The position numbers and the translations under genes were made by a program. 64,000 bases of DNA from positions 46,718-110,717 of the IMG/VR virus record IMGVR_UViG_3300028591_000002; one strand, 5' to 3'. How positions within the stretch are numbered: position 1 is the stretch's first letter; each line of letters begins with the position of its first letter. The stretch is from a virus. Taxonomy: Duplodnaviria; Heunggongvirae; Uroviricota; Caudoviricetes. Under the pieces are notes generated by a model. That model did not search any database and had not been told where the DNA came from. It was given only the letters and a program-made list of their open reading frames with translations. Positions 34,495-62,650 of the stretch are shown here, piece after piece.

Positions 34495-34719
34495 TTACTC
34501 TTCAGTTTCTGGCTCCTTATCGTTGCAATCTAAATCTTCTATATTTTCCTTATTAACTTGGGCTTGATTATTTTGAGGTAGTATATTAGTTGGAGCACCT
34601 AATCTTGCTGCAATAAGTGCTGAATTAATAGCATGCTCAAAAATTCCAGTAAATAATATATCTTGTTCTTTCCCCATAAGTTCAAGGGATACATTGTTAA
34701 TATTAAAACTAAATGTCAT
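34495..34719 (-). CDS. hypothetical protein
   Basis: Probable ATG at 34719 (MTFSFNIN) inside the track ORF 34495..34755. Confidence 0.65.
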   Translation of the reverse strand: MTFSFNINNVSLELMGKEQDILFTGIFEHAINSALIAARLGAPTNILPQNNQAQVNKENIEDLDCNDKEPETEE

Positions 34720-35377
34720 AATAAAAAGGTTTATAAGAAATTGTATAAGATTCATCTACTACAGAAACATTGACTACTTTAGTATTTTCCAACATTTCAA
34801 TTTCATGGTTTGAAGAATGTAAATGCCCATGTACTAATAACTTAGGATTTTTCTCCAAAACAACTGATCTAAGAGCTTCATTTCCAATATGTATTCCATT
34901 TCCCCAACAAATATCACTTGCTCCATAAGGCGCATCATGACTTACAACTATATCACAGTCTTTAGGCATTCTTGAATAATAATCATAACAAGCTTCTTGA
35001 TTTTTCATAAACGCCCAATTACCGAATACTTTACACACTGGAGTTCCAAATATTTTAAGGATTCTACCATCTTCAGTCATATATTCAGCAACTTCATTTT
35101 CTAAATATATAACTTTAGTTCCTCTAAATATTTCTTTAATTTTTGGAGTATTATTCTCAAATGCAAAATCATGATTTCCAGCGACTAAAATAATATTTTC
35201 ACATGGTTGTTTTTGACACCATGGAACAAATTTTTTCTTTAACCAAGATAAAGATTGGGGAATATTTCTTTGCATTTTAAGTGGAATAACATCACCACAA
35301 ATTAATAATAAATTACATGGTTCAATATTTATATTATTTTGTAAACCATGCATATCTCCTATTGCACAAATTTTCAT
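34709..35377 (-). CDS. calcineurin-like metallophosphoesterase
   Basis: DMHG, GD, GNHD and HGHLH motifs; ends in TAG with a TAA two codons later. Confidence 0.9.
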
Positions 35378-39748: not shown

Positions 39749-41925
39749 AAATCATTTATTTCTGGAGTTGCACTTAGAGGCAACCTTTTACAAAAAGGTT
39801 TAGCACCTTCTTCCATACATCTTACTAATATTTTAGACATTTCATCAACTATTTCAACCGGACATTCTATATTTATTTCATCATGTGCAGGCACACAATA
39901 TTTAACTTTAAATAATAAATCATGGGATTTAATATAGTTAAATAATTTTATAGAAGCTAATTTAAAACAACAAGCACCTCTATTTTGAATTCTATAATTA
40001 ATTGAAAACTTCTCAAGTTCTTTCTTTTGTTTTAAATACTTATTTATTTTTCCTACATCGGAATTATAATATCCAGATTCTTTTTCTCGATTATAATATT
40101 CCCAAAAATCAGAACGATTTGCATATTGTTGAACTTCGGCAAGTTCTTCCCAATTAGGAATATGGTACCTATGTCCAGTAACAGGATTCATTAGAATATA
40201 ACCATCTCTCATAACAGCCATTCTACAATAATCTTGATATTTTTTAACTCCTGGGAAACCTTCCATATAAGAAGTATAAATAATTTTAGCTTCTTTTAAA
40301 GGAATACCTGCATTTGCATGAATAGTATTATAATCACCACCATAATTTATGGCAAATTCAATACTTTTAGCATTTTGTCTTTCATTATGAAATAATTTAT
40401 TAATATCTTCAATTCTAGTATCTCTAGGAATAATATTTGGATAACTCATATAGGCTACTAGAGCATGCATATCTCCACAGCCTGTTCTATATAATTCTAA
40501 CATAGCAGGGTCATTAGCTACAGAAGCTAGTAATTGACTCTCCTGAGAATCATAATCACAAGATATCCATTTATTATCTTTTTCAGCTACAAAACAAGCT
40601 CTAGTTTCTTTATCTCTTGGAAGCTGTTGGAGATTTAATTTATAAGGACCTCCACCACTACTTACTCTTCCAGTATCTGTACCTAGTTGATGAAAATCAA
40701 CGTGAATTCTATGTGAAACAGGATTAATTGCTTTTAACCAGTTTTCTCCAAAAGATTTAACAACTTTAGAGGCTTCCTTATATTCCAAATAAGGTTTAGA
40801 AATTGTAGAAACATTCATTTGTTTCTCGATTACATCAGAACCTACAGATTTCCTTTTTTCTTTAGTCTTCTTATCAAATATTTCAAGATTATATCCAAGA
40901 AGTTCAAAGAATGGGATAATCTGTTTAGGACTATCCCAATTTATTATACATTGAGGTTCTAGATTAAAACCAGTAAATAAATCCCCTTGAGTATCTATTT
41001 TAATATATGGAAATTTCTCCCTAACTTTAACCCCATAAAGCAATCCAACATCTGGATTATTAGATTGTCTAGTGAATACTTCACCTTTAATCATAGGGTG
41101 TAAAGTTATACCAAATTTTTTTAGAGTTTTAATATCATGACAAAACTGGGTTTCAACTATATATTCTCTTTCTATAGTTAAATCTTTTGTATTTCCATTA
41201 TTAGCATAAAAATATTTAACTACCCAATCATTTAATTTCTTACTGGATTCATTCATTTTAGCTTTATCTTTAGCCATTTTAGATTTCCATTTATTTACAT
41301 CTAATTTGACTCCACAAAGTTTGATATAAGCTAAACATTTTACAAATTCATTTTCTAATTTTAATGCTTTCTCAAGTTTCTCCTCTCGGATTTTAATCAT
41401 TTGTTTATCTCTGATATCAGAAAGATGCATTACATCTCCAGCAGCATAAACAATTACTCTTTCAGATAAACCTTCTGTAATAATTTTACCTCTTACAGAC
41501 TTATCTAAATCCTCACTAAAATATCTAAAATAGGTATCTTTTAAAGAATATCCAACATCTTCATATCCATTATTAATTAATTGTTCAGCCAACATTCCAT
41601 CATAAACACGGTTTGGCCAAATACCATAATGATATAAAAACATTAAGTCAAATTGAGCATTCCAAAATAGAAAAAGTCTATTAGATTCTAAATATTCTTT
41701 TATTCCTTTTGGAATGCCTTGAGATACATCAAATACAAACTGATTTTTTTTATTTCCTAATTGAATAGTTAATAAAGGTTTAGTATATGGGTCTAATCCC
41801 ATAGTTTCAGTATCACATTCACATTCATTTAGAGATTCTAAAAGTTCTAAAGCCTTTTCTGCTGATATAATCTTATATTTATCACTCTCCCATAGACTCT
41901 TCTGATTGCTTATTAAATATATCAT
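39736..41925 (-). CDS. polA: family A DNA polymerase with 3'-5' exonuclease domain
   Basis: Exo DTETMGLD; motif A DYDSQE, motif B RQNAKSIEFAINYG, motif C PAHDE; uninterrupted 729 aa in the standard code. Confidence 0.97.
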   Translation of the reverse strand: MIYLISNQKSLWESDKYKIISAEKALELLESLNECECDTETMGLDPYTKPLLTIQLGNKKNQFVFDVSQGIPKGIKEYLESNRLFLFWNAQFDLMFLYHYGIWPNRVYDGMLAEQLINNGYEDVGYSLKDTYFRYFSEDLDKSVRGKIITEGLSERVIVYAAGDVMHLSDIRDKQMIKIREEKLEKALKLENEFVKCLAYIKLCGVKLDVNKWKSKMAKDKAKMNESSKKLNDWVVKYFYANNGNTKDLTIEREYIVETQFCHDIKTLKKFGITLHPMIKGEVFTRQSNNPDVGLLYGVKVREKFPYIKIDTQGDLFTGFNLEPQCIINWDSPKQIIPFFELLGYNLEIFDKKTKEKRKSVGSDVIEKQMNVSTISKPYLEYKEASKVVKSFGENWLKAINPVSHRIHVDFHQLGTDTGRVSSGGGPYKLNLQQLPRDKETRACFVAEKDNKWISCDYDSQESQLLASVANDPAMLELYRTGCGDMHALVAYMSYPNIIPRDTRIEDINKLFHNERQNAKSIEFAINYGGDYNTIHANAGIPLKEAKIIYTSYMEGFPGVKKYQDYCRMAVMRDGYILMNPVTGHRYHIPNWEELAEVQQYANRSDFWEYYNREKESGYYNSDVGKINKYLKQKKELEKFSINYRIQNRGACCFKLASIKLFNYIKSHDLLFKVKYCVPAHDEINIECPVEIVDEMSKILVRCMEEGAKPFCKRLPLSATPEINDFWVH

Positions 41926-42310
41926 TATAATTAGCAGGTAATAGTTTAAAGTTCTCTGGAGTATCTCTAACTACCACCATTCTAGGTCTCCAATATTCTC
42001 CTATTTTTCCTTTAATACATCCAAGACCTACCCATTTTATATCTGGAAATTTATTAAAGAAATATTGAATTAGCCAGGTAGTACAATTTGGAATCTCGTA
42101 GTCAGCAATATACATCATTACAAACTCATTTGGTTTTATATACCCTCGAATATGCATATGCCAGTTATAATGATATTTATCACAAATATCACTATGCTTT
42201 TGATCTGCATCATTTCTATTTATTACATTTATTCTTGACTCTTCATCTAGAAAAAATGGAATTCTATTTCTCAGAAATTCAGCTTCTTTAATTTTTTCTT
42301 GTTCAGTCAT
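41882..42310 (-). CDS. hypothetical protein
   Basis: 142-aa operonic ORF. Confidence 0.7.
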   Translation of the reverse strand: MTEQEKIKEAEFLRNRIPFFLDEESRINVINRNDADQKHSDICDKYHYNWHMHIRGYIKPNEFVMMYIADYEIPNCTTWLIQYFFNKFPDIKWVGLGCIKGKIGEYWRPRMVVVRDTPENFKLLPANYNDIFNKQSEESMGE

Positions 42311-42584
42311 TTCCTACATTTGTGATTTTTATATATCCAGTTCTAGATATACCAAGTATTTTTAAATTTTCATATTCAATGGTCCAATTTGATAGGTATT
42401 CATTAAGATATATTCTCGGTATACCTAAAAGGTCACAGCATTCTAACACAAGACTAACGGGAATATGTTTTTCAAAAACTATTTCTTTAGTTTCTCCATT
42501 TTTAACTGCCGTTAAGGCATTTGTTATTCCTATTTTCATAGAAGTAATTCCTGTAGCTATATCACTGTAAATATATTTATTCAT
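42303..42584 (-). CDS. hypothetical protein
   Basis: 93-aa operonic ORF. Confidence 0.7.
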   Translation of the reverse strand: MNKYIYSDIATGITSMKIGITNALTAVKNGETKEIVFEKHIPVSLVLECCDLLGIPRIYLNEYLSNWTIEYENLKILGISRTGYIKITNVGND

Positions 42585-44572: not shown

Positions 44573-45989
44573 TATTATTAATCATTTCAATATCAACGTC
44601 TCCCTTATCTATATTTTTAGCTTCCTTCTCTAAGAACTTCTTACATTTTAATTTAAAACATTCTGGAGTTTTATCAAAATTTATTCTTAAACAAATTCCT
44701 TCTCTAGGAACTTTATTATTACACATTGGCTCAAGTTCTTCCATAAAGAAATTTTTATCTTCTTGAAGTTTAAGAAGAATATCTTCATGCCAATGTTCAA
44801 AAGTTGAAACTTCTGGATATAAATCTTTTAAAGTTCCAGAATAAATTATAGGAAGAGGAATAATTTTATTCTTAAGTTCTGGGTGATCATAAGTTAATTT
44901 TAAGACATAATCGACTACTTCTACAGGTTCCCATTCATATTTCTTACCATCTTGTACATTAGTAGTAATACGATATATCATAAGAACATTTTCTTCAGGA
45001 TTACAACCATAATCATACCCCTTTTGAATAGAGTTTCCACAAATTTCTCCATAGAGAGTTACATCTTGAGGAATTATATCTTTCAGAATTTGATAATATT
45101 CTTCCCAGACATCTCTCTTATAATATCCTTCAGTAACTTCTGGATTAATATTCTTATTCTTAATTACCTTTCTAGAAGAATATACAACGTCATATTTTAT
45201 ATAATAAGTAGGGAAAGTTTCTTCTTTAAAGAAATTAATTACTTTCTTATACCAAGGCAATTTAATAGGGAATTTAGTCTTTATATTAGAATATATTGCA
45301 GAAGTTCCATGCATTTTTACAGATATAGTAACTGTATCGTTTGGAGAAATCTTATACATATTCTTTTGTAAAGGAGCTGTATCATAATGAAAAGCAAATT
45401 GTCCTGGAATCATTCTATCAAACTTCTCAATTTTATCTTTCTTAGGACTAGAACCTTTCTTATGCTCTTTTTCCTTTATTGGAGGAACATATGCTTTAAC
45501 AAATAATTCCCCATTAACAGTATCAAAATCCTTATTTAAGATTTCTTCCAAATTTAATGTCTTTACTTCTGGACAAAATCTGGCTAATTCATCTACACTG
45601 AATAAATATCCCATAGATAAAACTCCTCCAAGTTTTATCATTCTAACTCTTCCATATTTATTAAAATATCCTACTTTACTTTTAGCTTCATCGATTTTAC
45701 CCTCTTCAATAAGAGCATTTATTTCTTCGGCATTAGCATTTCTATCTCTTTCACTAAATTCAAATAAATTATTTAAAGATAGAAAAGTAGAATTTAGTTG
45801 ACATTCATTAGAAGCATAAAATAGAATATCTCCTTCTTTTACCTGATCTTTTCTAATTACTATAACCTCCCCATTTACTACTGTAGTTGCTATTTTATCC
45901 CTATTTGGAATAGGAGTAATTTCTCCAATTTTAACGGCATTACAACAGTATTCAGAAGTTCCCTCTTTAGACATTGTCAGTATTTCCAT
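44553..45989 (-). CDS. Rnl2-family RNA ligase with N-terminal extension
   Basis: Nucleotidyltransferase motifs VKMHGTS, LYGEI, REGICLR and FKLK. Confidence 0.85.
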   Translation of the reverse strand: MEILTMSKEGTSEYCCNAVKIGEITPIPNRDKIATTVVNGEVIVIRKDQVKEGDILFYASNECQLNSTFLSLNNLFEFSERDRNANAEEINALIEEGKIDEAKSKVGYFNKYGRVRMIKLGGVLSMGYLFSVDELARFCPEVKTLNLEEILNKDFDTVNGELFVKAYVPPIKEKEHKKGSSPKKDKIEKFDRMIPGQFAFHYDTAPLQKNMYKISPNDTVTISVKMHGTSAIYSNIKTKFPIKLPWYKKVINFFKEETFPTYYIKYDVVYSSRKVIKNKNINPEVTEGYYKRDVWEEYYQILKDIIPQDVTLYGEICGNSIQKGYDYGCNPEENVLMIYRITTNVQDGKKYEWEPVEVVDYVLKLTYDHPELKNKIIPLPIIYSGTLKDLYPEVSTFEHWHEDILLKLQEDKNFFMEELEPMCNNKVPREGICLRINFDKTPECFKLKCKKFLEKEAKNIDKGDVDIEMINNSEIDSN

Positions 45990-46368
45990 GTTCTCTAATC
46001 TTGTTAATTATATAATTTAACATTCTATTTTTATTTGGAAAAGACGCTTTCCCTTTCCAAGTATTTCCCCAAGTATCAACATATTTAGAAGCAATTTTAT
46101 AGTTTTTATAAATACTATTATACTTTTCTAAAATTTCTTGGGCTTTATCTTCAGAAGGATGGTTAGAAGCAATTATTTTATCAAGATTTATAAAATATAC
46201 TTCTAACCATCCAGATTCATTAACATCTAGTTTTCCCCTAAGTCTTCCATCGGCACTTTTTACTTGAATACTCCAAGCTTTCCTATCGTAAAAAGTTTTA
46301 GGAACAAATTTTTCTCTAGGAGTAACTAGCATTACTGAAGCTTCTTTAGTTGCTTTCTTTCTAGCCAT
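45967..46368 (-). CDS. hypothetical basic protein
   Basis: 133-aa operonic ORF. Confidence 0.7.
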   Translation of the reverse strand: MARKKATKEASVMLVTPREKFVPKTFYDRKAWSIQVKSADGRLRGKLDVNESGWLEVYFINLDKIIASNHPSEDKAQEILEKYNSIYKNYKIASKYVDTWGNTWKGKASFPNKNRMLNYIINKIREHGNTDNV

Positions 46369-46369
46369 A

Positions 46370-47611
46370 TTATTCTAAATCCCATCTAAAACATTTAAAG
46401 GCTGGTTGTAATGGAACTCCTGTAGTAACATTACCTCCATTGGAATAGTAAAAGTATTTACATTCTCCAATATGTCCTTTATATTTAGATTCAAAATTAG
46501 CTACATATTCCTCTTTAACAGATTTATCTCCCATTGGCTTAGCTTTAAAAAGATTTCCTACTGGAGTTTCACATATGAAAACCATATCTTCAGCCCCTCT
46601 TAAACCTAATTCATAATCAACAACTCTAAAACACCCATCTTCATACTTCTTTATTTTTATCATACAATTCTTACGAGAACCAAACTCATAATTAGCATTT
46701 GGATCTCTAATAACAACTCCTTCCCAACCTTCTTCTACATATTTATTATGCAACTTCATTATATTATCAAAACCACTTACTTTAACCTGAGGAACTATTT
46801 GCATTTGCAAATCTCCTTTATTAAATTCATGATAAGGATTAAATCCTATACCTAATTCTTTGGCTGTTTGAATAAGTAATTTTAATCTTTTTTTGAAAGG
46901 AATTTTTGGAATCATTATATCATAGATATAGAATTGAAGCCAATCGCAATCATAAGCATTTTTTTCTAATCGAGCAGCTCCATTAATTTCTTGAAGAGTT
47001 TTTCCATGTTTATAGAGTTCTCCATCTAAAATCCAATCTGGATGATTTTTAAAGAATTCTATTAACTTAGGATGTTCCGCAATATGAGTTGTTGCTGGAT
47101 TGTAGTCATGCCCACCCCGCGAGGATGTTCTAACTTCTTTACCTGTCCAATAAAAGGACGCTCTAAGTCCGTCAATTTTTCTACTGGCATACCAATATTC
47201 TAAATTATCAATTGTTTCTCGTTTAACATTTGTATAAGATTTAGCAAGCATATGCTTTTTAATTCCATTAGCATCTGTAGCATATTCTGGAAGCATATTC
47301 TGTAAATCCTCTTCAGAGTATTCTTCTGGGTTTTTATTAATCTCTTTATAACCTTTATCTTTATATTCTTTAACAAGGGAATCGAATTGTAATTGAGTTT
47401 GTTCTTGGACAGTTCTCTTTACTTTTCCCTTTTTCACATAAATCTCAGGTTGCTTAGTTATTTTTCCATTTAATTGCCAAGTATACCTATTTATTACATA
47501 TCCACTAGAATAGTTTAAATATTCTACTTTAACACATCGAATTTTGTTCTTAGCATCCCTTGAAATTAAATATGCTAAAGATTTATCAGGTTCTTGATTA
47601 AATAAATCCAT
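46370..47611 (-). CDS. ATP-dependent DNA ligase
   Basis: KIDGLR, LDGELY, YDI, EGVVIR, IKIK and a C-terminal OB domain. Confidence 0.93.
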   Translation of the reverse strand: MDLFNQEPDKSLAYLISRDAKNKIRCVKVEYLNYSSGYVINRYTWQLNGKITKQPEIYVKKGKVKRTVQEQTQLQFDSLVKEYKDKGYKEINKNPEEYSEEDLQNMLPEYATDANGIKKHMLAKSYTNVKRETIDNLEYWYASRKIDGLRASFYWTGKEVRTSSRGGHDYNPATTHIAEHPKLIEFFKNHPDWILDGELYKHGKTLQEINGAARLEKNAYDCDWLQFYIYDIMIPKIPFKKRLKLLIQTAKELGIGFNPYHEFNKGDLQMQIVPQVKVSGFDNIMKLHNKYVEEGWEGVVIRDPNANYEFGSRKNCMIKIKKYEDGCFRVVDYELGLRGAEDMVFICETPVGNLFKAKPMGDKSVKEEYVANFESKYKGHIGECKYFYYSNGGNVTTGVPLQPAFKCFRWDLE

Positions 47612-48977: not shown

Positions 48978-49222
48978 AATACTAATTTATCAATAGCGTT
49001 TCCATTTTCTGAATAAAATACTTTTATTGTACTATCTCCTTTAGTTATTACCACAAAAGGATTTTTATGTGCTCCCCAATGAGATTTAAGTTTATAGGCA
49101 GCACTTTTATCCTTTTTAGAAGTTATGTCATAGATAGTTAAACATACATCTTTCTTAAACTCTACAAAGTCGATAATCTCTCTATCAGAGGAATTACCAA
49201 TCACTATTTGTACATTGTACAT
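48956..49222 (-). CDS. hypothetical, possibly thioredoxin-fold protein lacking CxxC
   Basis: 88 aa; WGAHKNPFVVI resembles a cis-Pro loop region; weak. Confidence 0.5.
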   Translation of the reverse strand: MYNVQIVIGNSSDREIIDFVEFKKDVCLTIYDITSKKDKSAAYKLKSHWGAHKNPFVVITKGDSTIKVFYSENGNAIDKLVLWAATDD

Positions 49223-49691
49223 TTTTCCAAAAAGATTGAGTTATATTCTTCAATGAATAAGTATATCCAATATCTACAACTTTAAACATATTTTGATTAG
49301 TAGTTCGCATATTTAAACCTCCTAAAGATTCTATATAAGGGCCTAACTTAATATAATCAAAATATTTTAAGTCAATTTCTTTTGGTAATTTATCTCTTCC
49401 AGAATACCAACCTACTTTTAAATCAGGAAATTCATCTTTAACATATTGTGCTAAATGAGTAACACTAAGAGGATCACTATCACCTCCCATGAATCCAACA
49501 CAAGTTATTCCTTCATTTTTATTTATAAGTTCAGTTAATTTATCTCTAGATAAAAATATACCAATATCCTCTTGAAGTTCTGGACTATGACATCCCGGAC
49601 ATTTAAAAGGACAATTGGTAATATTTATACATAAAGATACTTCATCTGGAAATTCTCTAAAAACTACTTCAGAATCACTAAACTTCAGCAT
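49194..49691 (-). CDS. nrdG: anaerobic ribonucleotide reductase activating enzyme
   Basis: CPFKCPGCHS radical SAM motif, GGD, KLGPY, TTNQ; lies close to nrdD. Confidence 0.93.
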   Translation of the reverse strand: MLKFSDSEVVFREFPDEVSLCINITNCPFKCPGCHSPELQEDIGIFLSRDKLTELINKNEGITCVGFMGGDSDPLSVTHLAQYVKDEFPDLKVGWYSGRDKLPKEIDLKYFDYIKLGPYIESLGGLNMRTTNQNMFKVVDIGYTYSLKNITQSFWKNVQCTNSDW

Positions 49692-49971
49692 CTAATTCAA
49701 ACTCATTTATACTAATTGTAATGTAACATTCTGCAAATCCTTCATTCTCTACATAGGAACATTCAGAATAAGTTTCTCCATGAATTTCATTATCTAATTC
49801 TAATTCTAAATCTCCATAAACACCTTTATCAACATCCTTTAAGAAATTAAGTATATATTTACTCATTTCTTCTTCAGCTTTTTTCATAGAAGAATATACT
49901 CCTATAACATTAACATAAGAATCCACAGTAGGTAAATATCCTATATCGGATAAAACATAAACTTTACTCAT
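49678..49971 (-). CDS. hypothetical acidic protein
   Basis: 97 aa; ends TAG immediately followed by TGA. Confidence 0.7.
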   Translation of the reverse strand: MSKVYVLSDIGYLPTVDSYVNVIGVYSSMKKAEEEMSKYILNFLKDVDKGVYGDLELELDNEIHGETYSECSYVENEGFAECYITISINEFELDAEV

Positions 49972-50709: not shown

Positions 50710-51180
50710 TTAACTTATATTAGCTACACAGTCTATAAAATCTCCATCAAATTCATTAGTAGCTGAAGAGATAAATATTTTAAAATTCTTGACATATTCT
50801 TTAAGACTTTTGAGGTCCTTTACTTCTTTCTCTAAAGTCATTACTTCTCTTATAGTATCATAAATAATGTCTGGATCTTTATTAGTACCAAGAACAGTAT
50901 AATATACTTTTAGAGAATTTTCATTTTCTTCAATGTCTCTTTGTATAGCATCAAGTACTGTTCTAAAATCTTCTGGAGATATACGAGTATATTTAGTTTC
51001 TTCACCACAAAAAGCTATAGATAAGTTATCATGAAAATAATGATACATTTCATTATTTCTAGCATAACAATCAATTTTTAGAGGAACACCTTCAGATAAT
51101 TTTATCTCATGTACCCCTTCCATATTTTCGAAAGTCTTTACTTTCTTAGGAATTAAATAAAAAGTTAAATAACTACTCAT
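50710..51180 (-). CDS. hypothetical protein
   Basis: 156-aa operonic ORF. Confidence 0.75.
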   Translation of the reverse strand: MSSYLTFYLIPKKVKTFENMEGVHEIKLSEGVPLKIDCYARNNEMYHYFHDNLSIAFCGEETKYTRISPEDFRTVLDAIQRDIEENENSLKVYYTVLGTNKDPDIIYDTIREVMTLEKEVKDLKSLKEYVKNFKIFISSATNEFDGDFIDCVANIS

Positions 51181-51466
51181 GCTTAATGTCTTTAATTCGT
51201 GATTTAAAATCTTCTACTAGAGTATTTAATCCCTCATCAGAATCAAAACTCCAATTATCAGTTTTAATATTTATAAAGAATCCCCCACCACCATCACGTG
51301 TACTCAGAGTAATTTCTTGAAAATTCCCATCCCTATCTTCTGTACAGTCTGGTTCTTGGGCATATATTATTTTAACTTCTTGAATTCCAATATATTCATT
51401 AGAATCATAAGTACTTTTTTCATATGGATAATCATCCATTGGAACTATTTTCACTGCCATAAACAA
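51173..51466 (-). CDS. hypothetical protein
   Basis: TRDGGGGFFINIKTDNWSFD motif; ends in TAG with a backup TAA at 51146. Confidence 0.7.
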   Translation of the reverse strand: MFMAVKIVPMDDYPYEKSTYDSNEYIGIQEVKIIYAQEPDCTEDRDGNFQEITLSTRDGGGGFFINIKTDNWSFDSDEGLNTLVEDFKSRIKDIKHE

Positions 51467-58200: not shown

Positions 58201-58681
58201 AAATCATTTTATTATAAACATTTTCTATTTCAGACATACTCAATGAATATACTCTATATTCTGTTTTATAATCTCTATTATATGGACTATCCATAAGTAA
58301 ACAAGGAATACCTAGTTTATTTAATTTTTCAAAATTATGAATAGAATCGTCAATAAATACATCAACTCTACCCTTAATTCTAGATGCTTTATCAGCAAAA
58401 TAACCAGGTACTTGATAAACAGGAGCCTTTGGAAACTCCTGTTTATCCAAGTATTGTTTAGTCCAAGGTTTAGGATTAACTCTTGCAGTACAATATAAAG
58501 CTGGAGTAAAATCAGGTTTTCTTAAAACTGGTAATGTTAACCAAAAATTCTTATCTTTTTTAAGAACTCTTTCAACATTTCTAGTTATGTCAGAAGATTT
58601 TTTTGGATAACCAAATCTTTTAAAATACTCCCCATAGAAATCTGCAACAGTTTGGTCTAAATCTAATCCTACTCTAAGCAT
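58187..58681 (-). CDS. HAD-family 5'(3')-deoxyribonucleotidase-like phosphatase
   Basis: DLDQT, K, FIDDS motifs. Confidence 0.85.
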   Translation of the reverse strand: MLRVGLDLDQTVADFYGEYFKRFGYPKKSSDITRNVERVLKKDKNFWLTLPVLRKPDFTPALYCTARVNPKPWTKQYLDKQEFPKAPVYQVPGYFADKASRIKGRVDVFIDDSIHNFEKLNKLGIPCLLMDSPYNRDYKTEYRVYSLSMSEIENVYNKMIYESN

Positions 58682-59604
58682 ATTTCTTTAATTGGATTTA
58701 AGTTAAACGAGCTTGGAGTAATAATCACCTTGTTTTCTTTTAAAATTACATTCTTAGAATATGCTTCTTGAGGATATGTACTTACTGGTAATTTTGAATT
58801 TTTAAGATATGGATAAAAGTTAGCTCCAAAAGCCACATTATTTATATCATTCTTTATTATTTCATCCTGAAGATAATCAAATACACCTTCTTGTAGTCCA
58901 GAATCACTTCTTCCATGTTTCATTAAAGGAAGAAGAACATGATAGTGAATATTAGAACCAAAATCTCTTGTAGACACAACAAAATCTTCTACAGATTTTT
59001 TATTAGAAATCAAATGATGAATCATCACTTTACATTCACCATATTTGAGAAGATTATCTATAGCTCTAAGTGCTCTAAATCTAAGTAATTCATTACCAAA
59101 ACTTACAGCTACACCACCTACAAAATTTCTAGTAGCTTCTAGGATTTCTTGACATCCAGTAAAATTAGTATTAGATAAAATTATACCATTAGTAGTATAA
59201 TTCGGAACTACATTAGTCTCATATACAGTCTGTAAGAATTTAGGAAAATCTGGATGGATAGTAGGTTCTCCTGTTGAACCAATAGCAATTTGAAATGGTT
59301 TAAGAGTCTTAGTAACTTTCTTAAACTTTTCTTCTGGATAAAAAGCCATCCACTTTTTCCAAGTTTCACATATATTTGGAAAATCTTCCCCTTTTTTAGT
59401 TGCAGCAACGTAACAGAATGGACATTCGGCATTACATCTTGTAGTAATACCTACGTCATAGAATTCAGATAATTCTGGAGGAAGTTCCATAATACTTTCA
59501 ACACTATCTCCAAATCTTACAGTCTTTAAATTAGACCACAATGCATTATAATTATAATCTTTAAGTGTTCTTAGTTTTACACCCCAATCTTTAAAATCTT
59601 TCAT
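58669..59604 (-). CDS. radical SAM enzyme
   Basis: CNAECPFC, GEPTIHPDF, TTNG; ends in TAG. Confidence 0.92.
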   Translation of the reverse strand: MKDFKDWGVKLRTLKDYNYNALWSNLKTVRFGDSVESIMELPPELSEFYDVGITTRCNAECPFCYVAATKKGEDFPNICETWKKWMAFYPEEKFKKVTKTLKPFQIAIGSTGEPTIHPDFPKFLQTVYETNVVPNYTTNGIILSNTNFTGCQEILEATRNFVGGVAVSFGNELLRFRALRAIDNLLKYGECKVMIHHLISNKKSVEDFVVSTRDFGSNIHYHVLLPLMKHGRSDSGLQEGVFDYLQDEIIKNDINNVAFGANFYPYLKNSKLPVSTYPQEAYSKNVILKENKVIITPSSFNLNPIKEICLE

Positions 59605-60453: not shown

Positions 60454-60917
60454 CCTAAATGTTCTCTATGAATAGATTCAACTTCGGTTTTCCTTAATTT
60501 ATTTCTTTTTTTATAATCAGGTTCGTTCCAATCATAATAAGGAAGTTCTATTTCTCCTAAATCTTTAGCATAATATCCAGAGAATTTCTCTTTGAATTTA
60601 GGAAAATTATATAAACTACTTATAAATTCCATAAGCCAATATGGAATAGTATTATCATCAACAGAATGAATTAACAAATCATTTTTAGCTACATGATAAT
60701 CCCAATTAATATCAATATAAGAACCCTCTGCTATTTCAAATTCTAATATTTCATTAATATTTAATTCAAGTATTTCACATAAATTCTTTATTATTTCAGG
60801 AACTTCCTTATTTATTTCATCCTGAAACTCTGGTTTAGCATGAATTATAAATACCTCACTAGAGGAATTTGTAATAACATCTGATATACTTAATATTTTA
60901 GCTATCATAGTCTTCAT
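60450..60917 (-). CDS. SDxITNSSSEV-motif protein 1
   Basis: KILSISDVITNSSSEVF. Confidence 0.85.
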   Translation of the reverse strand: MKTMIAKILSISDVITNSSSEVFIIHAKPEFQDEINKEVPEIIKNLCEILELNINEILEFEIAEGSYIDINWDYHVAKNDLLIHSVDDNTIPYWLMEFISSLYNFPKFKEKFSGYYAKDLGEIELPYYDWNEPDYKKRNKLRKTEVESIHREHLG

Positions 60918-61119
60918 TTAAATCAGTTACGATTAAACCATAGGACTCACATTCGTCTTGAACATCTTCCCATGTATCTAACCCTATCAAATCTACTTTA
61001 TCATTTACATCTTCCAAAATTAAGGAAGCTTTTTCTATTGCTTCTTTATAGGAAGAAGCTACAACTTGTCTTTGATGTTCAGTTTTTCCTTTAAAATAAG
61101 AAAATTGATATGTATTCAT
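60898..61119 (-). CDS. hypothetical acidic protein
   Basis: 73-aa operonic ORF. Confidence 0.7.
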   Translation of the reverse strand: MNTYQFSYFKGKTEHQRQVVASSYKEAIEKASLILEDVNDKVDLIGLDTWEDVQDECESYGLIVTDLNEDYDS

Positions 61120-61673
61120 AATATTTTATGTTGTTTAGTGTAAGCATCTAAAAGGTCATAGAAAAAATCTTCTTCTACCATAAAAATAATATTGTTAGAA
61201 GATATAGTATTCTTTTTCCAACATAAACAAAATGGTTTAGATTTATCAGGACATTCTTCTCTAATTCCAAAATAATTTGGAGTATTAGCATAATTTTTTA
61301 CTTGAATATTTACAGGTAACTTACGTTCTGTATCACAAATATCTATTTTAGAATTATCCATCTTTTTGGATTCTCCAGCTGACCTTTCGCAGCCAGTATA
61401 TCCAATTTCTCTTAATTTATCTCTCACTCTATATTCTAAATCCTTTCCCTTAGATTTAGATTTTCTAGCTTGATAAGATTTTTTAGTATGTTCATCTAAC
61501 CATTCGAATGTTGTACCATCTTTTCCTCCACAACCTTTCTTATTACATCTTATTTTAATGCTTGCCACACTTAAGCCTAATTGTTCACTAGCTTCTTCAA
61601 TAGATTGAAATATCTAAACTGAACCGTCTTTCAAAGTTGCTTTGCATGAAGTATTCAATATACTTTTAGCCAT
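61116..61673 (-). CDS. Holliday-junction-resolvase-like PD-(D/E)xK nuclease with N-terminal NUMOD1-like HTH; 185 aa when the internal TAG is read as Gln
   Basis: ATG at 61673 overlaps the primase TAA; in frame with track ORF 61116..61568; single TAG at 61614-61616. KSKGKDLE..ERS..DI..IQVK nuclease core. Confidence 0.8.
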
Positions 61674-62650
61674 TACTTTAATTTTTTTAAATATAGTTTT
61701 AAGAACTTAATTGTTCCGTCTTTACCATTCTTTTTATAAAAATCACTAATATCTTTAACTCCATATTTAAATGGAATCCAAAAATAATTAAGTTCTGGAT
61801 AGCTTTTTCTTATCTTTATTAAATTAGTTAATCCAGGTCTATCATTATCATAAAAAACAACAATATGTTTAAATCTAGACTTTAAATCTTTTAACATTTT
61901 TTCTGTAATAAATAAATTCTCAGAATTTGGAGCAATAGATGCTATACCAAAACTAGCAAGACACATAACATCTTTCATACTCTTAGTAATAACTAAAAGT
62001 TTTCCTTCTTTTGGAAGTTGCTTATATCCTTGAACTTTTTTTGCAGGCCAATTTGTTAAAAATCTATATTGTTCTCTTTGTGAATAATATATTCTCCATA
62101 ATTCTTTTCCTTCATATATTCCCCCAAAATATCCAAAAGTTAATTTACTATTAGAAGTAAATAATTTATCATTTAAAAAAACATTTTTACAAGAATATAC
62201 ATCATATTTTTTAAGTAATTGTGGGGTTATTCCAAATTGAGACCACCATTTTAATTCAGATTCAGAAAAATCTTTTATTTCAACACCTATTTTTGCAGGT
62301 TCTTGATTTTCAAACTTCTGGACAATTTTTGTAATTTTTTTGGGTGTACTTCCATCCTTTAATCCAAAATCTTCTGCAATTATATTTATAGCTTCATAAT
62401 AACTAACTGAATATTTAGCCATTACTACTCCTATAAAATTTAACTGTTTACCAGTAGCGAAATCATGAAATAATATTTCTCCATTTTTACTTTTATAAAA
62501 AGAACAAGTTACCTTGTTATCCTGTCTTAAAGGATTCTTATATAAACCCTTTTTGACAGGAATACCAAGATAATGACTTAGATATGTTTCTTCAGAATAT
62601 TTAGAGATTAAATAGGCTTTATCAATCTTTTGGTTTATTCTGAAATTCAT
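61673..62650 (-). CDS. dnaG: DnaG-type (TOPRIM) primase, crAss-like
   Basis: N-terminal NPLRQD..CSF..HDF, ITKSMKDVM, YDNDRPG, KDISD. Confidence 0.9.
   Translation of the reverse strand: MNFRINQKIDKAYLISKYSEETYLSHYLGIPVKKGLYKNPLRQDNKVTCSFYKSKNGEILFHDFATGKQLNFIGVVMAKYSVSYYEAINIIAEDFGLKDGSTPKKITKIVQKFENQEPAKIGVEIKDFSESELKWWSQFGITPQLLKKYDVYSCKNVFLNDKLFTSNSKLTFGYFGGIYEGKELWRIYYSQREQYRFLTNWPAKKVQGYKQLPKEGKLLVITKSMKDVMCLASFGIASIAPNSENLFITEKMLKDLKSRFKHIVVFYDNDRPGLTNLIKIRKSYPELNYFWIPFKYGVKDISDFYKKNGKDGTIKFLKLYLKKLK

Follow-up and report, generated by a model that had tools for sequence, protein, structure and literature searches.

In a crAss-like phage of the ruminant gut, the gene of a putative junction nuclease carries one in-frame TAG at codon 20, and comparison with related loci shows that TAG is enriched and retained in the nuclease gene while the neighbouring genes exclude it. 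What is new here is a lineage in which the TAG is found at a changed position, codon 20. We consider it probable, if by no great measure, that the TAG acts as a selected translational lock of one codon that ties the nuclease to the suppressor tRNA(CUA) of the phage, and the full enzyme is probably made only once this TAG-reading tRNA is active.

The DNA analysed, from here on the window, is one stretch of 64,000 nucleotides taken from a complete virus record of 178,291 bp that has direct terminal repeats, in which it occupies bases 46718-110717. Runs containing the window sequence derive from the gut of sheep, cattle and goat, and the DNA of the primase resembles that of crAss-like phages. The features of the nuclease region are the following (positions in the window):

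61116..61673, minus strand: putative junction-nuclease gene at full length, 185 codons from the ATG to the TGA (61118-61116), TAG being read as Gln
61614..61616, minus strand: in-frame TAG, codon 20, in the first beta-hairpin of the N-terminal domain (model strand E19-22)
61671..61673, minus strand: ATG start of the nuclease, base 61673 being common to the primase stop TAA (61673-61675)
61566..61568, minus strand: GTG, codon 36, the first canonical start past the TAG, where the 150-aa ORF of code 11 begins
61488..61673, minus strand: N-terminal NUMOD1 / I-HmuI-like DNA-binding domain (residues 1-62), from a fold match, the binding being predicted
61131..61466, minus strand: C-terminal Hjc-like PD-(D/E)XK domain (residues 70-181), from profile and fold matches
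61673..62650, minus strand: DnaG-type primase, free of TAG (PHROG 12622, 9e-36, and Toprim_2), with no gap to the nuclease start
60898..61119, minus strand: downstream 73-aa ORF, its ATG overlapping the nuclease stop (ATGA)

The nuclease frame is open over all 185 codons with the exception of the one TAG, and it reaches back to the ATG at 61673 at the primase stop, as proposed in a preliminary description of this DNA whose coordinates all proved right. The same description had located the TAG in an N-terminal NUMOD-like HTH region, and codon 20 was indeed found in the first beta-hairpin of the model, while the GTG at codon 36 is placed inside the recognition helix of the HTH (model helix H36-44). 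When the TAG is read as Gln, the tryptic peptide across it is DGSVQIFQSIEEASEQLGLSVASIK. Public databases list the nuclease in truncated form, with 150, 81 or about 179 aa, as a result of gene calling under code 11. Within the window the claim proved right that no other minus-strand gene has an internal TAG: 52 minus-strand genes were analysed and the nuclease alone has a real one; the other apparent internal TAGs (41882-42319, 45967-46506, 49194-49706 and 34495-34938) were rejected because an ATG comes directly after the TAG or the frame is a non-coding overlap frame. The 73-aa ORF downstream heads a chain of small overlapping genes and has homologues in only 3 of the 80 related loci described below.

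The phage is TAG-recoded in its late genes and keeps the standard code in its replication block. The plus-strand genes at 373-80102 of the genome, which encode TerL, the portal and very large proteins (the longest 3,607 aa), contain approximately one TAG per 50 codons, and the same density, about 1 per 50, is found in the plus-strand genes of the window (329-33385). In 13 large late plus-strand genes TAG accounts for 325 of the 786 Gln-type codons (41%); TerL has 12 in-frame TAGs, and there are late proteins with 59-74 each. With TAG taken as sense, open frames cover ~1.0 of the first 36 kb of the window, compared with ~0.4-0.9 otherwise. The 52 minus-strand genes of the window stop at TAA (30), TGA (18) or TAG (4). 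A search with ARAGORN revealed a tRNA with the anticodon CUA (cta) on the plus strand at genome 169864-169938, outside the window, whose closest counterpart in the genome is the phage tRNA-Gln(ttg) with 69% identity. TAG is presumably decoded as Gln, as indicated by the Gln-like body of tRNA(CUA) and by one TAG column of TerL that is otherwise mostly Q.

Two regions on the minus strand outside the window, genome 170131-174711 and 146153-147925, are also heavily TAG-recoded with 2-15 TAGs per gene. Among these genes are a Peptidase_M15 and a phage lysozyme (170131-174711) and a YkuD-like protein, forming a lysis cassette on the "early" strand that adjoins the tRNA(CTA) gene at 169864-169938. 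Since this recoded lysis cluster is on the minus strand, the use of TAG tracks gene class and not strand. ARAGORN also reported a tRNA with the anticodon TTA at genome 141349-141421 (minus strand, outside the window), which would read TAA, yet the phage uses TAA as its main stop codon.

The codon-20 TAG is present in contigs of four runs from four studies (a sheep RNA library, bovine, sheep and bovine) which cover 61597-61637 and show no variant at 61614-61616, and it recurs in the JGI metagenome contig L102, 99% identical to the window. It is kept in samples of both sheep and cattle, from runs released 2018-2025. The contig of the RNA library spans 61269-61876 unchanged, where DNA carry-over is possible, so that it constitutes no proof of transcription. 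The preliminary description had allowed for the TAG being a sequencing error or confined to one isolate, and the four runs of four studies together with L102 speak against both; a one-base error of assembly or sequencing at the TAG is refuted by the identical three letters in the four-study contigs and in the independent JGI contig, which leaves it a probability close to nil.

The 90% protein cluster of the window's nuclease includes 185-aa calls with Q as well as 150-aa calls from the GTG, drawn from ENA, Logan and JGI assemblies, the 150-aa database calls starting with MASIK or VASIK. A sister variant that is ~98% identical after codon 36 appears as paired calls of 187 aa and 81 aa (protein calls only), suggesting that it also has an internal stop. 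The closest protein relatives of the window's nuclease are P0002, P0124 and P0126, the latter two being sister lineages. When viral contigs were scanned with patterns for close relatives of the codon-20 region or of the MKMAKVN leader, no match was obtained.

To characterise the protein, homologues were collected in a search of 5.8 billion proteins, giving 241 sequences, nearly all of them 177-199 aa long and aligned from residue 1-6. Their consensus, LNTSCKATFKDG..EF.SIEEASE.TG.S.A.IKIRCNK, has E26, A28, K40, R42 and N44 as invariant residues. The preliminary description had asked whether homologues possess the N-terminal HTH or begin at the GTG; the domain is kept in more than 200 of them and they do not begin at the GTG. 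The 35 codons upstream of the GTG are real coding sequence and make up half of the conserved HTH domain, and since the GTG is situated inside the recognition helix, a protein started there lacks that half.

The AlphaFold model of the nuclease (mean pLDDT 84.6) has two domains. In its N-terminal part, residues 14-40 matched two Pfam families below their cut-offs, PF22083 with 19.4 bits (cut-off 27) and PF07453 with 16.2 bits (cut-off 22.8). The model shows here the beta-hairpin and helix-turn-helix fold of the DNA-binding module of homing endonucleases, residues 1-62 being superimposed on residues 112-174 of I-HmuI (1u3e) with a VIA-align Z of 8.2, an rmsd of 3.1 and a Foldseek probability of 1.00, and on the DNA-binding domain of I-TevI (1t2t) with a VIA-align Z of 5.9. 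A mobile homing endonuclease gene was considered and rejected, as the gene follows immediately on the primase in each of the 80 related loci and behaves as a core gene.

The C-terminal domain was matched by the profiles PHROG 244 (labelled junction resolvase, 1.2e-9) and PF24608 (8e-4), and a profile search of the PDB gave weak matches to Hjc (2eo0, 4tkk and 1hh1, E 0.005-0.014) with the motif aligned. Model residues 72-181 compare with 1gef (Z 7.5, rmsd 3.4 over 97 residues), 1ob8 (7.2) and 2wcw (6.2), all of these being middling Z scores, and Foldseek gave probabilities of 0.90-0.98 to 4tkd, 2eo0 and 2wj0. The invariant residues E80, D111 and K126 correspond in the alignment to the catalytic E, D and K of Hjc, while an invariant Q124 is found at the position of the second Glu of Hjc. 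Taken from profiles and model, the nuclease is most likely a Holliday-junction or branched-DNA resolvase. Its C-terminal domain resembles by profile and fold the archaeal Hjc/Hje enzymes (1gef, 1hh1, 1ob8, 2eo0) and the Hjc of Thermus phage 15-6 (7bgs), a likeness that combines a weak sequence match (the E values above) with Z scores of 5-7.5 and from which junction cleavage is only predicted. Unlike Hjc/Hje, the nuclease of the window has the invariant Gln in place of the ExK Glu and an extra NUMOD-like HTH at its N-terminus. The replacement, at 61296-61304 in the window (codons 124-126), is family-wide (NIQxK) and unusual in an Hjc-like resolvase.

The position of the TAG was compared in 80 related IMG/VR loci with 48-77% aa identity. 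Of these, 75 contain exactly one in-frame TAG, which is located at codon 3-7, downstream of the ATG and ahead of the conserved motif LNTS (for example MKK-TAG-ELNTSC, MAKK-TAG-TNTSV and MSKSN-TAG-NLNTA). In some lineages a GTG, TTG or ATG directly behind this 5' TAG could bypass it, and it is at such a GTG that code-11 calling has started many database entries, which begin with ME-LNTSC or VE-LNTSC. No ATG, GTG or TTG follows within at least 13 codons downstream in about 45 of the 75 loci, so that the conserved domain can there be translated only by read-through. Counting Gln-type codons over the 80 loci gave 75 TAG and 1 CAA in the leader and 280 CAA, 82 CAG and 1 TAG in the body. In L026 a CAA occupies the very codon that is TAG in its sister sequences, in support of the Gln reading. 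The base after the TAG is A or G in 73 of the 75 relatives; as these loci are not independent, and as late-gene TAGs show an ordinary first-base composition, no significance is attached to this.

A TAG at codon 20 is absent from all 80 related loci. The corresponding column is a variable surface position, occupied mainly by K (43 loci), H (13 loci), Q (9 loci, CAA each time) and E (9 loci), and Q occurs in 47 of 121 proteins, so Gln, expected by the preliminary description at the TAG, is common in this column. On whether the TAG is conserved in recoded relatives the answer was divided, negative for codon 20 and positive for the same gene, with its codon 3-7 TAG in 75 of 80.

All long relatives with a 5' TAG are TAG-recoded in TerL. 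The nuclease has no TAG in L010 and L012, in the short contigs L020 and L026 and in the L106 clade, and since L010 and L012 are TAG-recoded the lock is not obligatory. L021 is the only TGA-recoded long relative and contains neither TAG nor TGA in its nuclease, by which a convergent TGA lock was rejected. In L032 (3843-4361 of a 4.4-kb contig) a second in-frame TAG was observed at the column of the invariant E101 (GESK replaced by G-TAG-NR), which could be a sign of a decaying copy or a Gln replacing the invariant Glu.

When 38 neighbour genes were compared with the 80 loci by tblastn, the more than 300,000 codons aligned contained one in-frame TAG, compared with 13 in the nuclease HSPs, and the primase, which lies beside the nuclease in all 80 loci, had none in 26,043 aligned codons. 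Walking upstream from the alignment start of each ortholog, no neighbour gene showed the pattern of an ATG, a TAG and no further start; g115825 and g95911, two candidates for further genes with a 5' TAG, were artefacts with the ATG inside the aligned region. The retention of the TAG also differs from that in a late gene: TerL of 17 genomes has 100 columns with TAG, shared by a median of 1-2 genomes and a maximum of 9, while 15 of these 17 have the 5' TAG in the nuclease. The overlap with the primase was rejected as a cause of the conservation, as the overlap frame varies among lineages or the overlap is absent, and so was a role of the TAG as a same-frame primase stop, an in-frame TAA or TGA being located 0-23 codons upstream. 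In L013-L015, L022, L030, L050-L063 and others the primase frame enters the nuclease gene by 14-31 nt, and the primase TAA arises inside conserved Leu/Thr-Asn codons (cTAAat, acTAAt) in two frames depending on lineage.

A tree of 54 distinct nuclease sequences with SH-aLRT support placed the window in a clade with 99% support. Of the seven other sequences in this clade, six carry the 5' TAG, and in the remaining one, L002, an ATG comes immediately behind the TAG. The closest sequence with DNA outside the window's cluster, L103 (79% identity), begins MSKK-TAG-VLNTSC, while the leader of the window, MAKSILNTSC, has no 5' TAG and the TAG is located 15 codons further in. As the window is nested among members with a 5' TAG in this clade, the 5' TAG is ancestral and the codon-20 TAG a derived replacement. 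The tree requires at least five losses of the 5' TAG, involving the L021/L106/L010/L012 group, L020, L026 and the window, and a replacement TAG is found only in the window's lineage among those that lost it. With one replacement event only, a selected relocation rests on a single case. The replacement is situated inside the folded domain with no nearby start codon to bypass it.

In the proposed mechanism, a ribosome starting at the ATG at 61673 would meet the UAG at codon 20, where the release factor of the host would free a peptide of 19 residues. Before suppression the intact nuclease would therefore be absent from the cell, and a start at the GTG of codon 36 would give a protein without half of its DNA-binding domain. 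With the phage tRNA(CUA) active, the UAG would be read as Gln and the full enzyme would result. Selection would act on the gene and not on the position of the codon, the ancestral lock being at codon 3-7 and that of the window at codon 20. The proposal would further have suppression set in later than transcription of the primase-nuclease operon, and nuclease made early would be harmful. Scans for sigma-70 promoters, terminators and the Bacteroidota-type promoter TTTG-N19-TAnnTTTG were at chance level and gave nothing between primase and nuclease. Resolvases such as T4 endonuclease VII and T7 endonuclease I are needed to debranch DNA before packaging and would, if present early, damage replication and recombination intermediates; by analogy both the need for debranching and the early harm may apply to the nuclease of the window.

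The preliminary description had proposed that the resolvase is made only after the code switch. This stands as far as the nuclease is singled out for TAG suppression (in 75 of 80 relatives, with essentially no TAG in the neighbours), and is weakened by the codon-20 position being unconserved and by L010 and L012 having no TAG. A wider formulation, in which selection keeps at least one amber codon within the first ~20 codons of the nuclease, at a free position, and the code change serves as a gene-specific checkpoint on a nuclease in an early operon, is put forward tentatively, with slightly less than an even chance of being right. Whether recoding is a regulatory timer or a drifted code is hard to test on late genes with dozens of recoded codons, while in the nuclease the whole effect would fall on one codon of one enzyme, long kept, making it a minimal falsifiable system. 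If the wider formulation is true, there would be a natural circuit of the type "amber mutant plus suppressor" consisting of one codon and testable by one base change.

Other explanations of the TAG were weighed against a selected lock. In a gene already dependent on suppression because of its 5' TAG, the TAG at codon 20 may have arisen and the 5' TAG been lost, both by chance, with neither position nor retention under selection. Such tolerated drift would suit a TAG at the variable surface position of codon 20, the second, body TAG of L032 and the fact that several lineages lost the 5' TAG without replacement, only one replacement event being seen. We nevertheless judge it unlikely, since TAG makes up 41% of the Gln-type codons in late genes but only 1 of 363 in the gene body of the relatives, so that a body TAG is not neutral, and since every strain sampled from the clade has the codon-20 TAG, whatever its host or year. 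The UAG might instead control dosage, by holding a toxic-prone nuclease at a fixed fraction throughout infection through competition of release factor and suppressor tRNA. Junction resolvases are required in small amounts only, and a lone TAG is placed so that failed attempts cost a very short peptide, both in keeping with this idea, which we consider improbable. Late proteins with 59-74 TAGs need near-complete suppression late in infection, when one TAG barely lowers the yield; its effect is thus to be sought in the period of weak suppression, and timing is favoured over dosage.

A real truncation is more improbable still. The TAG would here be a nonsense mutation, the working protein would have 150 aa from the GTG at 61568, and the upstream 35 codons would be decaying. 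The gene callers and the ORF track do choose the GTG, and within the 90% cluster the N-terminal 30 residues diverge faster, residues 6-35 being 83-87% identical against 98-99% elsewhere, which corresponds to the 82nd percentile of comparable pairs and hints weakly that the part before the GTG is under relaxed constraint; moreover T32, nearly invariant in the family, is L in the window's nuclease. Against this, a start at the GTG falls within the recognition helix, and the domain to which this helix belongs is conserved in more than 200 homologues. Five distinct sequences of the cluster show neither a further stop nor a frameshift upstream of the GTG and retain the ATG at the primase stop as well as the invariant I25, E26 and A28. 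Elsewhere in the phage, TAG has a sense reading at more than 300 sites.

The selected lock can be compared with known systems. Recoding of TAG to Gln ("code 15") has been proposed as a translational block on late and lysis genes in gut phages including crAss-like ones (bioRxiv 10.1101/2021.08.26.457843; Yutin et al. 2021, PMC7886860). The genome of the window is like these phages in being TAG-recoded, in having a tRNA(CUA) and TAG-rich structural and lysis genes, and in keeping its replication module in the standard code. It differs from those cases by a single TAG within codons 3-20 that is family-wide, by the avoidance of TAG in the other Gln codons of the gene and by a position that changed once. 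Borges et al. also described an intron homing endonuclease of the "Agate" phages that is situated inside an early gene and preferentially TGA-recoded, for which a late-infection delay was proposed (bioRxiv 10.1101/2021.08.26.457843). Unlike this endonuclease, the nuclease of the window is encoded by a core syntenic gene beside the primase and is not a mobile element. In the literature searched, no description was found of a single family-wide TAG in a core junction nuclease.

T4 gene 49 (endonuclease VII) may be a parallel for a delayed nuclease. The nucleases I-TevI, I-TevII, I-TevIII, segB and mobE of T4 are located in early transcription units and are translationally delayed by an RNA hairpin that hides the ribosome-binding site, together with a late promoter (Edgell et al. 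2010, PMC2988022; for gene 49, endonuclease VII, the review refers to Barth et al. 1988). As proposed for the window, a nuclease in an early transcript would likewise be left untranslated until late. The block would differ from the T4 hairpin in being a stop codon readable only by a phage tRNA.

Some further uses of TAG were observed in minus-strand genes. In the window, the radical-SAM gene (58669-59604, minus strand; 3' end 58585-58671) ends with ICLE-TAG-D-TAG-I-TAG, that is with three TAGs in alternate codons, past which the frame is open for 23 more codons to a TAA, and a tail of 28 residues would follow the code switch. Three other genes of the early block (34703-35377, 49675-49971 and 51146-51460, minus strand) end in TAG and have a back-up TAA or TGA 1, 0 and 8 codons later, respectively; these back-up stops fit an early block written to tolerate both readings of TAG. 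Outside the window, on the minus strand, two ORFs of no assigned function contain one isolated TAG each, at codon 29 of genome 132108-132665 (L083:7109-7666) and at codon 115 of genome 162337-163017 (L085:2338-3018), with no nearby alternative start, and these two may be additional single-codon locks.
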